Source: a virus
Virus record (IMG/VR): IMGVR_UViG_3300027509_000007
DNA: 40,601 nucleotides
Strand: one strand, 5' to 3'
Shown: positions 16,953 through 40,601 of the stretch, piece after piece
Layout: each line of letters opens with the position of its first letter
How positions within the stretch are numbered: position 1 is the first letter of the stretch
Program-made: the position numbers and the translations under genes
Notes under the pieces: generated by a model
Told to the model about the DNA's origin: nothing
The model's input: only the letters and a program-made list of their open reading frames with translations
The model's database searches: none

Positions 16953-16990
16953 GAAATACTCCGAGTAATGGAGTATTTATGCGAATGTCA

Positions 16991-17024
16991 GAACGAAGAA
17001 AGCCTCCAATAAAGGAGGCTTTTA
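16991..17024 (-). terminator. Stem-loop terminator candidate downstream of the major capsid gene.
   Basis: Minus sense reads AAAAGCCTCC-TTTATT-GGAGGCTTTCTTCGTT. This is a 7-bp GC-rich stem (17001..17007 / 17014..17020) followed by a U-rich tract. Confidence 0.55.
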
Positions 17025-18343: not shown

Positions 18344-20506
18344 TTATTTAAAATCCTTCAATAGATCGGTAATTTGATCAGATGATATGGTTGATTTTTC
18401 TTCTACAACTTCAACATCATCGATAATTTCATCAACAATTACATCTTCAGATTTAACCTTATCGATGTGGGCATCAGGACAACTTGGCACAGAAACAACC
18501 GACACCTCTGCAAGATTTAATTCAAGTAGATTACGAACAATCCTGCCACCAACGCGCTCACTACTCTTGCGAATTACACGATAACCAATTGATAATCCTG
18601 ATAGACTTTTTGACCTAATTAATTCAAGAACATCATTACCTAGTCGTGTCTTTGCCAGTGTTCCACGAACTCTCAAACCTGAAGGTGTTTCAGTGATTTC
18701 GTCCCAACGTCCAATAGGCTCCATAGGATTGTGATTAAAATACATCATCACCTGTTTGCCAGTGTTGAGGCTTCGCTTAAAGGCTCCCAATTGCACAATG
18801 TCACCATGACTATCAAGCGTTGGTACTGATGCCCATCCTTCAATAGTTCCATCTTCAGCTTCAGCCACTTCTAGTGAAACAGTGCTGTTCTTAACTTCGT
18901 AATCATCATGACCTGTTTGATTTTTCATGTACGTTTTAAACTCGACGATATTTTTATCTAGGTCAGTCTTATATTCAGCATCTTGGATGCCTTGAAGTTG
19001 CTTTTCTACTTCATCAGAATCGATTTCTTCAACTTCTTCAACTTCTTCAACTTCTTCAACTTCTTCAACTTCTTCAACTTCTTCAACTTCTTCAACTTCT
19101 TCAACTTCTTCAACTTCTTTGTCATTGTCAACAACAACAATGTCATACTCAACACCATTGATCGTAACGAATTCAGCTTCTGATTCAATTGCATCTGCAA
19201 TTAGGTCATTAACTGCCGACTTTGAATCATCATCACCTGCATCATCTTCTTCTACTGTAGGAACGACTGGTTCAACAGCATCTTCTTCTACCGTTTCAAC
19301 TTCTTCTTCAACTTCCTCAATAGGTGGCAATCCCAACCGGTCTCGTTTTTCATTAGTCGTTAGAACTTCAGAAAGTGAATACCGTTCTGCTAGTTGATCC
19401 CTTCGTGGTTGTAGTGCAAGAATCTGATCTTCATCAATGCAGATTTCAAAGTTAGGGTCAAATCTTGGTGCAAGCCAGTAATTTAATTCGGTAGCCAATG
19501 TTGATGCTGCATTCATAACAGTCGATTCATAGAAATGTAATTTTAATTCTTCGATGTTGCTGAACGTGCTCGCCTCAGAATTCGAGATTAGTTGACTTGG
19601 AACACCTAATGTTGCACAGATGATTTTGGTCAACTCTTTTTTGGTTTCCAAGTAATCCATCTCTCTGGCATTAACAGACAGTGGCTTTACATCTACTTCA
19701 CTCGATAGAATGTTCTGGCCTGAATTATGTGGGCCTGAATAGCGACTATTAATTGTGTCTCGCATTTCGTCTTGCTGATCTTTATCAATTTCGTTTTTAA
19801 AACTCCATATTGCTGAAGGTCGCGCCCCATTCTTTAACAGATTTGTATTGTGAGTTTGACCCGCATTTAATAATGCAATTTCGCTTGAACAACGTGATAA
19901 CGGACTAGTACCCCAATGACAATCCATTGCACTAGCATTTTTGATATGTAATACATCAGAATCTCCGCTGATTTGATCAACAGGGAATTCTATTTGTCTT
20001 GTGTTAGTGCCATTGTTTGATGGTGTGTAACGATACAGTTCTGGTAGTCGATTTCCATTCTCGACAATATCAATCATTGCAGGATTCAATAATTCTAATT
20101 CTTTAATTTTGCCATTGTTTAATTCGATCTTTCTGATGAATATGTTTCCAGATATAAGGCGATATAAAGTTGCAGTATAGAAAAACTCACTTTTAGACAT
20201 GTTTACACACGGACGTTGTAACAACATTTCTAGGTCTGAATCCTCGATACGTTCTCCAGTACGCCGGTCTTTAATTATCCAGTGAAGATCACCAATGCTC
20301 GATGCAACCAAATCAATGCAAGATGATGCAACAGCATTTTTCTCAAAAGCCTCTGTTGCTAATTTTCGATATGAACGGGAATGAATGTGCTCTGAATCGT
20401 TAGACAGAATAAATTCAGAGTATTGTCTGCTGAATGCCGTTTCATTTGAACTGGATTTAAAACTGTCAGGTAATAGAATGCCTGATTTATGTTGGGAGTA
20501 AGCCAT
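18344..20506 (-). CDS. Portal protein fused to an HK97-type prohead protease, 720 aa.
   Basis: About 400 aa at the N-terminus look like an HK97-type portal. An acidic linker with a (VEE)10 repeat follows. The C-terminal segment EGWASVPTLDSHGDIVQLGAFKRSL...MYFNHN...PIGRWDEI...GLRVRG...LSGLSIGY matches my recollection of the S78/U35 prohead protease. Confidence 0.75.
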   Translation of the reverse strand: MAYSQHKSGILLPDSFKSSSNETAFSRQYSEFILSNDSEHIHSRSYRKLATEAFEKNAVASSCIDLVASSIGDLHWIIKDRRTGERIEDSDLEMLLQRPCVNMSKSEFFYTATLYRLISGNIFIRKIELNNGKIKELELLNPAMIDIVENGNRLPELYRYTPSNNGTNTRQIEFPVDQISGDSDVLHIKNASAMDCHWGTSPLSRCSSEIALLNAGQTHNTNLLKNGARPSAIWSFKNEIDKDQQDEMRDTINSRYSGPHNSGQNILSSEVDVKPLSVNAREMDYLETKKELTKIICATLGVPSQLISNSEASTFSNIEELKLHFYESTVMNAASTLATELNYWLAPRFDPNFEICIDEDQILALQPRRDQLAERYSLSEVLTTNEKRDRLGLPPIEEVEEEVETVEEDAVEPVVPTVEEDDAGDDDSKSAVNDLIADAIESEAEFVTINGVEYDIVVVDNDKEVEEVEEVEEVEEVEEVEEVEEVEEVEEVEEIDSDEVEKQLQGIQDAEYKTDLDKNIVEFKTYMKNQTGHDDYEVKNSTVSLEVAEAEDGTIEGWASVPTLDSHGDIVQLGAFKRSLNTGKQVMMYFNHNPMEPIGRWDEITETPSGLRVRGTLAKTRLGNDVLELIRSKSLSGLSIGYRVIRKSSERVGGRIVRNLLELNLAEVSVVSVPSCPDAHIDKVKSEDVIVDEIIDDVEVVEEKSTISSDQITDLLKDFK
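19025..19119. repeat. Perfect 9-bp tandem repeat (ttcttcaac) x10 plus a partial copy. It encodes (VEE)10 in the portal-protease linker.
   Basis: Read directly from the sequence. The repeat is in frame (9 bp equals 3 codons). Confidence 0.95.
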
Positions 20507-20566: not shown

Positions 20567-22060
20567 TCAAGCAACCCATGCTTTCTTCTGGTTAGAGATT
20601 AACAATGCGCTCACTGCATAAACTAATGCATCCATTCTGTCAGGACTCTTTTGGTTCCGACCTAATTTTGGTGACCATGTGACCATTTCTTCTTCGAGTT
20701 TTTCATGCACACCCACATGTGAGATTAAATTACGACTGTATAAATTTGAGACTGGTTCTGCTCGTGTGTACTTTCCAATTCGTGCATGTATCTTTTGAAT
20801 GTTCATGTTGGTGTCTTGTTGTCTAAGCACTAACTCCACCATGTCTCCACCTTGATTGACCTCGGCGATGCAAGCTGATGCACCATGTCTGTTGTATGCA
20901 TCTGCAACGATAGCAGCCCATCGTTCTGGCAATTCCTTAATACTTAAATCTTCAAGAACGTATGCTCTATCTTCGACTTTGGCTGCAACACAAATTCCAC
21001 ATAGATCAGATGATTTGTTATTGGTGGTCGATGGGTCAACTGCAATAACAATTCTTTCAACTTCATGAAATATTGATTTAAAGAATTGTTTTGTCACTCT
21101 GTTCTTTTCAATGGATTCACTTTCAAACAGACTGTCAGGATTATCAAGCAGAAGTTCTGCATTCATTTCTTGGCGACCTAGACGAGTATTACCATAACGT
21201 TTCTGCAATCGCTTCATGTAGCCTTTGGTTAATGCGGTGTTCTCACCTGAACTACCAGTGACAACAGTGACATCATCAGAATCTTGCAACAGTTCTTTTG
21301 CTAGTTCACTCGGACGTGGCGTGGATGCAATTACAACTTGCTGTTCATCATCACCACCTAATCGAAGCGTAAATTGCAACTGGTCATAGACTTCTCTTTG
21401 GTATGGCATCAAAAATAATTCATCAATTAGAATTAACTGTGCTTCTGAACCTGCTATACCATCGGGTTGTTCTCCAGTGAACGTTGTTATCTGCGAGCCA
21501 TTTGCATACACGGCTGTCTTAGTACTTGGGTTATAGATAGGCTTTCTTGCTGGATGTGATAGCGCAATAATTCCCGACTTACCGCGCATGATCGTGTTTC
21601 TATTGTCTGAGGCGGTTTGTCCGCAGATGCTAATTTTGCATCCTGCATGTGTTTCTGCGAATTCTTTAGCGTATTGAGCTAAACAAAATGTTTTTCCATT
21701 TAATGGCTGGTGGCCTTTCAGATAATGTTAGTTAAATGAAAGGCCACCAGCCCCGAATCCCCTGCCTGCGCTGTAGATCACTACAGGGTTTTCATCAGGT
21801 TTTAATATTTGCTGTTTACGTCTGCCAATGAAGCGGACGTTATATCCAAGCTCAAGTTTTATATCATCAGGAATGACTTTCCATATCTTGTGCCTTTCAG
21901 TATGTACTTTTAATTGTTCAGCAACAGATGCTTCTATATCTTCATCAAAATTAATAAACTCTTTAATCTTAGTAAGGAATGGTTCAATATCAGGGATATC
22001 GAAGTCAATCGGACTTTCAAGGTATGACTGTGCTGAATTAAATTGTTCTTTTCTCTGCAT
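20567..22060 (-). CDS. terL: Large terminase subunit. It is a single reading frame interrupted by one in-frame TAA (21728..21730) inside a 57-nt hairpin segment that splits Walker A.
   Basis: Track ORFs 21728..22060 and 20567..21589 share a frame (22060-21589=471). Codons 21727..21590 are open. The sequence reads ..VVIYSAGRGFG[AGGLSFN*HYLKGHQPLNG]KTFCLAQYAKEF..GQTASDNRNTIMRGKSGII.. A nuclease-like C-terminal half follows (IAVDPS..D..GI). Confidence 0.8.
21705..21752 (-). other. Perfect 16-bp inverted repeat with a 16-nt loop, inside terL. The loop carries the in-frame TAA.
   Basis: Arm ggctggtggcctttca lies at 21705..21720 and arm tgaaaggccaccagcc at 21737..21752. The loop is 21721..21736. 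Confidence 0.95.
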
Positions 22061-22470
22061 TATTCTTTCTCGATGAATTCACCGTCTAAGGCTTCATTCT
22101 TGTTTTTATTGATTTCTTTCGATAGATCATCCAGTGGTTTCATATCCAGTAATTCATCCAGAGACTCTAGTGCTCTTTCATGGGTGACTTTAACGTTGAC
22201 GTTGGTTGTGGTTGTCACTTCAGATTCAATGCGTTTGGCCTTTCGATTGTGCATGTATGGCAATAGATCATTGGCGGCTTTTTCAGCCAGTTTTGGGTCT
22301 GTGTTAGGATCGTTATAGAGCTTTAATAGGAACGTTAGCGGTGACTCAAGCTCTGAGTAGGCTTCCATTCGGGCAACTGATTTCTCGACGATATCCAGCA
22401 AGACTTTTTCTTGGCGTTGTGCTCCAGAATTGGCGGCTTTCTTTTTGGTTGTTTTAATATCTTTGCTCAT
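22060..22470 (-). CDS. Putative small terminase subunit, 136 aa.
   Basis: It lies immediately upstream of terL with a TAATG overlap. It has a basic N-terminus and an ..AANDLLPYMH.K.. motif I recall from small terminases. Confidence 0.5.
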   Translation of the reverse strand: MSKDIKTTKKKAANSGAQRQEKVLLDIVEKSVARMEAYSELESPLTFLLKLYNDPNTDPKLAEKAANDLLPYMHNRKAKRIESEVTTTTNVNVKVTHERALESLDELLDMKPLDDLSKEINKNKNEALDGEFIEKE

Positions 22471-23066: not shown

Positions 23067-24175
23067 TGGTAAGTAGATGTATTGACGGGTTTGGTACTGT
23101 ATGGATGTACAGTGGTCTAGTATCGAACCAATTACGGTATAAAAGTATTATTAAACAGTACTGGATAATGTATTACGGTTGCGTGGCGTGATTTGGTACG
23201 ATTAAAGTATGATTAAATTGTTATTGAGATACTGGTTGGTTCGTTTACAGAGATGGCGCGATTTTCGTTAACTAGGTCACATTTTTTAAATTTTTGCGAT
23301 GAAAGTCCGCTAAAAATGAGAACCAATCAGCATTTCTCAAATGTTTTTTGTGAACCCCTAGCCAAAACGGTAAGATAATTCTGAAAATTTCTAGATCATA
23401 CATATGGAATTGCAAGGAACCAGTCTACATTTCTGATCATTAACTAAATGCTTGATTTGTTAACTCGATCACAATGTATATCCGTCTACAATTTTAATTG
23501 ATTTTGTTAACTCCATCCGATTGTCGATTACATCCCAATGTATACCAGTTAATGTGGTATAAAAACAACTACAATCTAGATCATACCTACGATAGTACTT
23601 GCATTTTGTAATGTATTATGATTTAATTGTTGAATCACATCGAATAATGATAACTCTATCACGCGATTCGATCCCACCAGTCATCAATCCATCATCTGTA
23701 ATAACCGGCAATCGGTAGAATTAATGGATAAAATCAATAATAATGTCGTATGTGATTGATTCTATTGAAGAATAATTAATAATTGATTATGTGAAGTCGG
23801 TTAAGAGGTGGGCAGTGGTGATATAATCCATCATGTCATAACTGTTAATTAATTATGATGCTTGATTTTATGTTATAATTAATCATGCGACTCTGAAAGC
23901 CCAGCCTAATGTATGCGCCCACACTTCCTTCTTGGCGCTTGTCTCCACATACAGTACAGATATTATATTAAATTATGGATTTGATTACGTTGAAGTGATC
24001 CACAGAACCAATCACGATATAAAATGTTGATTGTTTTTGTGCTGTAATTAAATTTCGGATGGAGTTCATGTTCTCTGTGCTGCTCTTTAAGCTCCTGTAC
24101 GCTCATCTGGTGTGATTGTACATCTGATGGTGTGATCGTTGAATGGTGGATCAGCCTCGCATCGTGGTGATGAAA
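23067..24175. other. ORF-free, repeat-rich 1.1-kb region between the early and late blocks. It is a candidate cos/pac site, origin or late control region.
   Basis: No ORF of 60 aa or more on either strand. It contains several short direct and inverted repeats, listed in the findings. Confidence 0.6.
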
Positions 24176-40474: not shown

Positions 40475-40601
40475 ACCACGAACTACAGTATTAAATGTTG
40501 CATCGCTTGTATTAAGTTTTAACTCTGCTCCACCATTTTTATTGACTATTATAGCGTCTGATACCGAATTCCAATAAACTTGACCTTTGGTGCTGCCAGA
40601 A
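40475..40601. repeat. Terminal overlap, copy 2. It is identical to 1..127.
   Basis: Read directly from the sequence. Confidence 0.95.

Follow-up and report, generated by a model that had tools for sequence, protein, structure and literature searches.

A 57-nt hairpin-bearing insert interrupts the Walker A motif in a phage large terminase gene and is a candidate site of translational bypassing

Can a large terminase gene whose ATP-binding loop is interrupted by a stop codon still give rise to a complete enzyme? This question is raised by the IMG/VR virus record IMGVR_UViG_3300027509_000007, a stretch of 40,601 nt that was analysed as a whole and is referred to here as the window. In it, the gene encoding the large terminase subunit (terL) is broken into two open reading frames (ORFs) by an insert of 57 nt that carries a perfect hairpin and an in-frame TAA. 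The terL frame (22060..20567, minus strand) is 1494 nt long and divisible by 3, and this TAA (21730..21728) is its sole internal stop; a first-pass annotation of the window, made from its letters alone, had placed both terminase ORFs in the same frame with one stop between them, and translation of the minus strand agreed. The reading that we favor, and to which we give about an even chance, is that the 57 nt constitute a non-coding gap in an otherwise functional terL, and that programmed translational bypassing from a GGG to a GGA codon would make the full-length protein.

As encoded, the Walker A motif of TerL ([AG]xxxxGK[ST]) is split by 19 codons, one of them the stop, and it is contiguous only when the insert, which lies between the Gly and the Lys of the GK[T/S] core, is left out. 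The joined translation then reads VVIYSAGRGFGKTFCLAQ (also written VVIYSAGRGFGKTF), and the junction of the uninterrupted terL is predicted to be GGATTCGG[GA]AAAACATTTTG; the claim of the first-pass annotation that deleting these 57 nt restores GRGFGKT was thus borne out by translation. The same annotation had held that the motif is the Walker A motif of a terminase, and had suggested comparing the joined protein, with and without the insert, to terminase profiles, and looking for inserts at this position of the P-loop in homologous terminases. With the insert removed, TerL matched PF03237 (Terminase_6N) with 63.2 bits from profile position 1 (cut-off 22) and PF17289 (Terminase_6C) with 58.5 bits (cut-off 22.6), such that both domain profiles, covering the ATPase and the RNaseH-like nuclease, exceeded their curated cut-offs. 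With the insert kept, the Terminase_6N match began only past it, at profile position 9, and scored 53.7 bits. PHROG 2, 38 and 979, all of which stand for the terminase large subunit, matched TerL as well. As is generally known for the T4-type large terminase, SRQLGKT and DEcA of gp17 are its Walker A and Walker B segments. In the family profile, GRGFGKT is aligned to SRQLGKT of gp17 (PDB 3ezk) and DEla to DEcA, which, together with the Pfam matches, established a Terminase_6-type TerL whose Walker A motif is the one interrupted.

The interrupted motif is nearly invariant among the homologs examined. The P-loop is intact in all 30 homologs inspected and reads exactly AGRGFGKT in 27, and G99, R100, G101, G103, K104 and T105 are invariant in an alignment of 18 homologs. 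No insert occurs at the P-loop in these 18 sequences, nor is there an interruption at this site in any of 80 related viral-contig loci. The closest cultured phage has a TerL of no more than 39% identity.

In the mRNA, the region reads GGC AGG GGA UUC GGG [GCU GGU GGC CUU UCA UUU AAC UAA CAU UAU CUG AAA GGC CAC CAG CCA UUA AAU GGA] AAA ACA UUU, with the insert in brackets. The first-pass annotation had described a perfect 16-bp inverted repeat around a 16-nt loop with the TAA, a GGG adjoining the 5' base of this hairpin, and a GGA 7 nt past its 3' base and directly before AAA ACA. All of this stands: the arms are fully complementary, and the stem opens with the third base of GGG. Furthermore, the loop holds stops in all three frames (UAA, UAA and UGA). 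The folded hairpin region has a free energy of -37.5 kcal/mol (z = -5.7), a stability reached by none of 200 shuffled sequences, and its 16-bp stem is the longest perfect one in the 40.6-kb genome, the next having 12 bp, which is also the maximum in 20 shuffles. Just upstream of GGG there is a possible further stem-loop, of marginal stability, which is also part of the minimum free energy structure of a 181-nt fold. GGG is the rarest Gly codon of the genome (28 of 555), and GGG, AGG and CGG are all rare codons in this phage across 36 genes. When the GGN triplets of the gap are listed and the GGGG overlap at the GGG codon itself is set aside, GGA is the first GGR triplet on the 3' side. The borders of the insert share a repeat of GG alone (TTCGG/GG...AATGG/AA), and here a target-site duplication and a take-off/landing pair would look alike. 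An intrinsic terminator was ruled out, there being no U-run after the stem on either strand.

The insert is not confined to a single assembly. It is found unchanged in the Logan assembly of SRR5754787, which is 100% identical to the window over 12,971 nt, and in a Joint Genome Institute (JGI) contig from another sample, which is 99.88% identical with four differences, all of them elsewhere; the substitutions between this contig and the window are three, all nonsynonymous and too few to interpret. Perfect palindromes can, as is generally known, come from amplification or assembly chimeras, and an assembly or sequencing artefact, for instance a fold-back chimera, is one rival account of the hairpin. 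We reject it, leaving it a negligible probability, because three assemblies (JGI, Logan and a second JGI assembly) carry the insert, one of them slightly diverged, and because the hairpin arms are unique in the genome, with no other occurrence in the window.

Copies of the hairpin were also searched for outside the window, with a pattern in which 12 + 12 arm bases flank an arbitrary loop of 6-36 nt. This pattern had no match in viral contigs, and from 185,579 reference genomes plus the metagenome collection of JGI it retrieved only three unrelated high-GC hairpins; a sensitive BLAST search of the insert against phages and plasmids likewise returned no match. A multicopy mobile palindrome, similar to miniature inverted-repeat transposable elements (MITE) or repetitive extragenic palindromes (REP), was therefore rejected, and the tiny palindromic mobile insertion that the first-pass annotation had offered as an alternative is unsupported in this multicopy form. 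An uninterrupted copy of the terL of the window phage was not found among 5.8 billion proteins.

The same protein collection was searched for the terL clade of the window phage, using the N-terminal domain and N-terminal alignments, and IMG/VR was searched as well. The N-terminal TerL domain, which is conserved between the window phage and its relatives, was present in only three lineages: the window phage, a sister phage seen in three assemblies (L001, L084 and L085, one of them on a 36-kb contig), and L083; N-terminal alignment in IMG/VR yielded no further relatives. The terL of L083 (64% identity) is uninterrupted, reading GCU GGU CGC GGA UUU GGA AAG ACG. That of the sister phage (61% identity) is interrupted in Walker A, two codons upstream of the window site, and reads GCG GGU CGG GGA UAG C UAA GGU UUC GGA AAA ACG. 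Its upstream frame closes at the UAG right after GGA, and its downstream frame, which is +1, opens after the UAA with GGU UUC GGA AAA ACG (G F G K T), so that the gap holds stops in both the 0 and the +1 frames. A simple +1 frameshift would be useless and was dismissed as impossible, because the +1 frame is closed by the UAA within the gap; only a +10 hop of peptidyl-tRNA-Gly from GGA to GGU would restore AGRGFGKT. A stem-loop of -20 kcal/mol (z = -3.1) ends at the take-off codon of the sister gene, the same region of L083 showing no unusual structure (z = +0.4), and the spacer of the sister gap, UAGCUAA, is 7 nt long, as in the window. Two of the three clade members are thus interrupted within the same 7-codon motif, compared to none of 80 distant relatives, and two independent interruptions in seven of ~478 codons, in a clade of three, appear hard to explain as random decay.

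Three further observations concern these relatives. L083 has an in-frame TGA (SHPS*QTIYNP, L083:500-540) where the window and the sister phage have a conserved Arg; since L083 is a 566-nt contig of low coverage, this is likely a C-to-T error (CGA to TGA), though a further recoding site is conceivable. In the sister phage, a free-standing gene for a GIY-YIG endonuclease lies 3.1 kb upstream of terL (L001:267-710). Its assemblies L001 and L084, otherwise identical, diverge from L001:8681 onward, where indels and repeats distinguish their tail-fibre regions.

We know of no short terminase bypassing proposed so far outside phiHau3-like Streptomyces phages. The terminase gene of Streptomyces phage phiHau3 has two 10-nt frame-disrupting blocks, with 7-nt blocks in two prophages (RNA Biol 2023, PMC10732093); a full-length terminase product is made in Streptomyces, and in E. 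coli, with UUA changed to UAA, tandem mass spectrometry (MS/MS) detected the junction peptide GWG/(K>N)DPLL (PMC10732093). The DNA of phiHau3 reads GGU UGG GGC [UUACUCC GGU] AAG GAC; BroPlease, a plaque-forming isolate that is 96% identical, keeps the gap with one substitution ([UUACCCC GGU]), and Yosif, which is uninterrupted, reads GGC UGG GGC AAG GAC. As in the window, it is the large-terminase gene of a temperate phage that is interrupted, the junction follows a Gly codon at the G/K of a GxGK motif (GWG/KD in phiHau3, GFG/KT in the window), and a 7-nt spacer, UUACUCC in phiHau3, precedes the landing codon. Judging by its position and pattern, GWGKD is probably the Walker A motif of the phiHau3 protein. 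No similarity could be detected between the two terminases (BLASTP E = 2.8, phiHau3 TerL being without a Pfam match), and the parallel is therefore convergent.

One geometry is common to the sister phage and phiHau3: the take-off codon encodes Gly, the codon in the A-site is slow, the spacer measures 7 nt, and landing would be on GGU after a hop of +10. The sister phage displays every feature of the phiHau3-type short terminase bypass (GGA [UAG CUAA GGU] UUC), and would be, quite straightforwardly, a new member of this type with a candidate +10 hop. The window does not belong there: its gap is 57 nt long, in frame and equipped with a 48-nt hairpin, unlike the short (7-10 nt), frame-shifting gap of phiHau3, and its A-site codon is a common sense codon, neither a stop nor the rare UUA. 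With the hairpin regarded as extruded, the remaining spacer would be 7 nt, as in the sister phage and phiHau3. Taken together, the comparison with these two phages lends the bypass reading real support.

Bypassing could proceed in the window phage as follows. The ribosome would translate terL up to Gly103 (GGG), where the very stable hairpin, starting from the third base of this codon, would hinder decoding of the next one and so replace a stop as the block in the A-site. Peptidyl-tRNA-Gly would then detach from GGG, and the ribosome would slide across the hairpin and the 7-nt AU-rich spacer. Re-pairing of the tRNA at GGA, the first cognate GGR triplet, would let translation continue at AAA ACA and generate AGRGFGKT. 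Ribosomes that fail to hop would stop in the loop, whatever their frame, and release a fragment of 110 amino acids. Since some ribosomes only would manage the hop, the insert may also throttle or gate the supply of terminase in this temperate phage.

Efficient long-distance bypassing is, to our knowledge, established experimentally for one phage gene family, that of T4 gene 60 and its homologs, and for one yeast mitochondrion. For comparison, the gene 60 features were taken from a preprint and a review, and a T4-type gene 60 sequence was fetched, which reads GGA UAG CC UUCG GG CUA UCC, 30 nt, GGA UUA. The window insert resembles gene 60 in its matched take-off and landing codons (GGG/GGA in the window, a pair that the preprint reports among natural gene 60 homologs of the Proteus clade), in gap length (57 versus 50 nt), in a take-off codon placed in the 5' base of a stem-loop, in in-frame stops that truncate the product of non-bypassing ribosomes, and in an AU-rich stretch ahead of the landing codon (AUUAAAU, 7 of 7 A or U), the preprint describing an AU-rich 3' gap in gene 60 homologs. 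The review lists the take-off stem-loop and the matched codons as the signals common to the T4 and mitochondrial cases. Other signals of gene 60 are missing. No stop or rare codon stands right after take-off: the A-site codon would be GCU, which is common (24.5 per 1000), and the stop comes seven codons after GCU, the sister phage having one directly after take-off (GGA UAG); a slow-to-decode A-site codon is found in most gene 60 cassettes and in phiHau3 (PMC10732093). No Shine-Dalgarno (SD)-like triplet (GAG, GGG, GGA or AGG) lies 5-7 nt before the landing GGA, which is preceded by CCAUUAAAU, the nearest AGG being 16 nt away. The stem-loop comprises 48 nt and is followed by 7 nt, as opposed to 20 nt followed by 30 nt in T4, and as a whole it could not fit into the A-site. 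A stem-loop 3' to the landing codon did not reach significance in either the window or the sister phage, and such a structure was dropped as a forward slippage barrier. The likeness to gene 60 that the first-pass annotation had proposed therefore holds in part: the Gly codons, the hairpin at take-off and the stops agree, as does the AU-rich spacer seen here, and the A-site codon, the SD-like triplet and the size of the stem-loop do not.

Beyond these signals, the host genes differ (a topoisomerase in T4, a terminase here), and the window insert shows no sequence similarity to known gene 60 cassettes. No endonuclease domain, as would mark a MobA-type cassette, was found in the ORFs on either side of the window terL, nor in 27 further window ORFs that were scanned. 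The insert would work like the bypassing of gene 60 and phiHau3, yet it lacks several of the features by which membership in either group is recognized. The nascent peptide offers one more point of comparison: the preprint names Y16, R24 and T/S40 among the best-conserved nascent-peptide residues of gene 60 cassettes, and in a backward count from the take-off codon, Y, R, R and S of the window peptide coincide with T4 Y16, R23, R24 and T40. Y73, R81 and S97 are accordingly in register with Y16, R24 and T/S40, and E90 mismatches Y33, in a comparison that was made post hoc and is only a lead; R81 and S97 occur in the window lineage alone, with V and C/V at these positions in L083 and the sister phage.

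The missing gene 60 signals weigh against bypassing and in favor of a plainer account, namely that a 57-nt palindromic fragment recently inserted into terL and killed it, leaving a defective prophage that still excises and replicates and is inherited vertically in an abundant host, with the 10-nt gap of the sister phage being a second lesion. For a P-loop that contains an in-frame stop, inactivation is the simplest reading, and in a temperate phage with an integrase a dead terL could last for a while. Copies within each interrupted type are moreover 99.9-100% identical, a divergence too small to demonstrate purifying selection within a lineage, and therefore provide no evolutionary test of selection on the insert or the flanking ORFs after insertion. 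We nonetheless consider inactivation less likely than bypassing, while regarding it as the main rival and a good deal more probable than the other alternatives. Two independent lesions would have had to strike the same 7 of ~478 codons, for which the odds by chance are roughly 1.5%, in a clade of only three known lineages, and both lie between Gly codons that permit exact repair. Neither terL shows a further lesion, none is apparent among the other structural genes, the assembly is circular, and the insert was seen in three assemblies of each type. Viable phages, namely phiHau3, BroPlease and GreenWeasel, have the same kind of interruption.

Two other readings were considered. In one, the ribosome would make a shorter hop of 33 nt, from AAC with UAA in the A-site to AAU, and continue to GGA AAA ACA, giving the product GRGFGAGGLSFNGKT, which is eight residues longer and keeps GxxxxGKT. 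AAC and AAU both specify Asn and are read by one and the same tRNA-Asn, and the resulting GLSFNGKT matches the Walker A pattern. This seems quite improbable to us, as AGRGFGKT directly follows the beta-strand in every homolog, with no insert there in the aligned sequences and loci described above, and as a nearer cognate AAC 4 nt downstream (AAC UAA CAU) leads into UGA and would make for an unproductive landing. In the other, the switch would operate on DNA: the palindrome would on rare occasions be precisely deleted by replication slippage between the flanking GG, and a subpopulation with intact terL would supply the terminase. Although GG microhomology is present at both borders and palindromes are generally known as deletion hot spots, we regard this as very improbable. 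The microhomology amounts to just 2 nt, no uninterrupted variant was found in the databases searched, revertants would soon outcompete the interrupted form, and the non-palindromic 10-nt gap of the sister phage would be left unexplained.

Several further candidates were discarded. Stop-codon reassignment was excluded, as the two phages differ in their stop (TAA and TAG) and read-through would yield either junk or a 19-residue insert in the P-loop. Re-initiation to produce the C-terminal fragment was excluded in the absence of an in-frame ATG, GTG or TTG between the stop and the Met at 21589; such a fragment would be without GKT. The E. coli Chi octamer GCTGGTGG occurs in each hairpin arm, and its 5 sites in the window (10906, 13048, 21706, 21744 and 37194) compare with 0.42 expected; a Chi-site cassette was dropped as probably non-specific, for GCTGGTGG ranks only ~28th among over-represented octamers, beside the codon-driven CAGCAGCA and TGGTGGTG. 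Inteins and homing-endonuclease insertions commonly hit the most conserved motif of TerL. Here, however, an insert of 57 nt is too short for an intein and carries a stop, no intein was found at the P-loop site in the long TerL homologs read, and the window has no tRNA genes or Rfam matches; an intein, an intron and an Rfam RNA were all set aside, the insert being too small. The mitochondrial byps of Magnusiomyces capitatus, as described in the literature, resemble the insert in being short, hairpin-forming inserts in essential genes with matched take-off and landing codons; they differ in being multicopy mobile elements within one genome, the insert being a singleton everywhere searched, and belong to a different translation system.

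If bypassing does take place in this terL, it may represent a long-range hop of 57 nt that is independent of T4 gene 60, in which the large hairpin is skipped as a unit and the effective spacer is 7 nt, comparable to the +10 hops proposed for the sister phage and phiHau3. It might then gate terminase supply in temperate phages, with the Gly codons of Walker A being a recurrent, convergent site of recoding and the nascent peptide (GRRKQQIL...YS) predisposing the clade to take-off. We hold this wider proposal tentatively, at somewhat less than an even chance. Were it a truly independent case, its differing architecture, in which a large perfect hairpin is combined with neither a stop at take-off nor an SD-like element, would reveal the signals that are really needed. 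It would also lend weight to the view that DNA packaging in temperate phages is gated through recoding of the terminase ATP-binding loop. For experiments, the small terL clade offers a natural matched set, in which one gene has a 57-nt gap, another a 10-nt gap and the third is uninterrupted. Annotation pipelines split such genes into two ORFs or pseudogenes, and functional phages are thus possibly mislabelled as defective.

Table 1. Coordinates of the interrupted terL gene, its insert and related features (window positions unless a contig is named).
Feature	Position	Strand	Description
terL 5' coding segment	21752..22060	-	Codons 1-103, with A G R G F G as last residues; from ORF list and translation
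terL 3' coding segment	20567..21694	-	From AAA ACA (K104 T105); remaining ATPase domain and RNaseH-like nuclease domain; from Pfam, PHROG and homologs
Small terminase subunit gene (terS)	22060..22470	-	Directly upstream, overlapping the terL start; PHROG 641, E = 3.4e-10
Insert (proposed coding gap)	21695..21751	-	57 nt, in frame; removal restores AGRGFGKT
Perfect hairpin	21705..21752	-	48 nt; 16-bp stem (arms 21737..21752 and 21705..21720), 16-nt loop 21721..21736
In-frame TAA	21728..21730	-	Inside the hairpin loop
Proposed take-off codon GGG (Gly103)	21754..21752	-	Final codon of the 5' segment
AU-only spacer AUUAAAU	21698..21704	-	7 nt, between hairpin base and landing codon
Proposed landing codon GGA	21695..21697	-	7 nt past the stem; followed by AAA ACA
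Possible 5' stem-loop	21755..21793	-	Just upstream of the take-off codon; marginal, -14.3 kcal/mol, z = -2.1
Sister phage gap GGA UAG C UAA GGU	L001:4125-4160 (= L084:4138-4173, L085:3920-3955)		10-nt gap; differs from the window insert in position and sequence

The remainder of the window has the gene order of a compact temperate siphovirus-like phage, and is probably a complete phage genome, since its first and last 127 nt (1-127 and 40475-40601) are identical, the signature of a circular assembly. The first-pass annotation had seen no other broken core gene, and the integrase, terS, the portal protein fused to an S78 protease, the HK97-type capsid protein, the head-tail adaptor, the tail tip protein and the holin were indeed all found to be intact. 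The portal protein and S78 prohead protease form one ORF of 720 amino acids (18344-20506, minus strand), in which they are linked by a long acidic (EEV)n repeat; relative to the window, the JGI contig from the other sample has a 1-nt gap in this gene, at 19305. Upstream of terS and of an ORF of 199 amino acids lies a 1.1-kb region (23067-24175) with no ORF longer than 47 amino acids, no gene called in the Logan assembly and no Rfam match, which may hold a cos or pac site or a regulatory region. Stop usage over all 36 genes in the codon counts is TAA 25 times, TGA 10 times and TAG never. Apart from the terL hairpin, the window contains a perfect hairpin with a 12-bp stem (2306-2334) and, upstream of the capsid gene start (16954-17022), two 9-bp stems, AAAGCCTCC/GGAGGCTTT and AAATACTCC/GGAGTATTT, and these look like ordinary terminators or operators.

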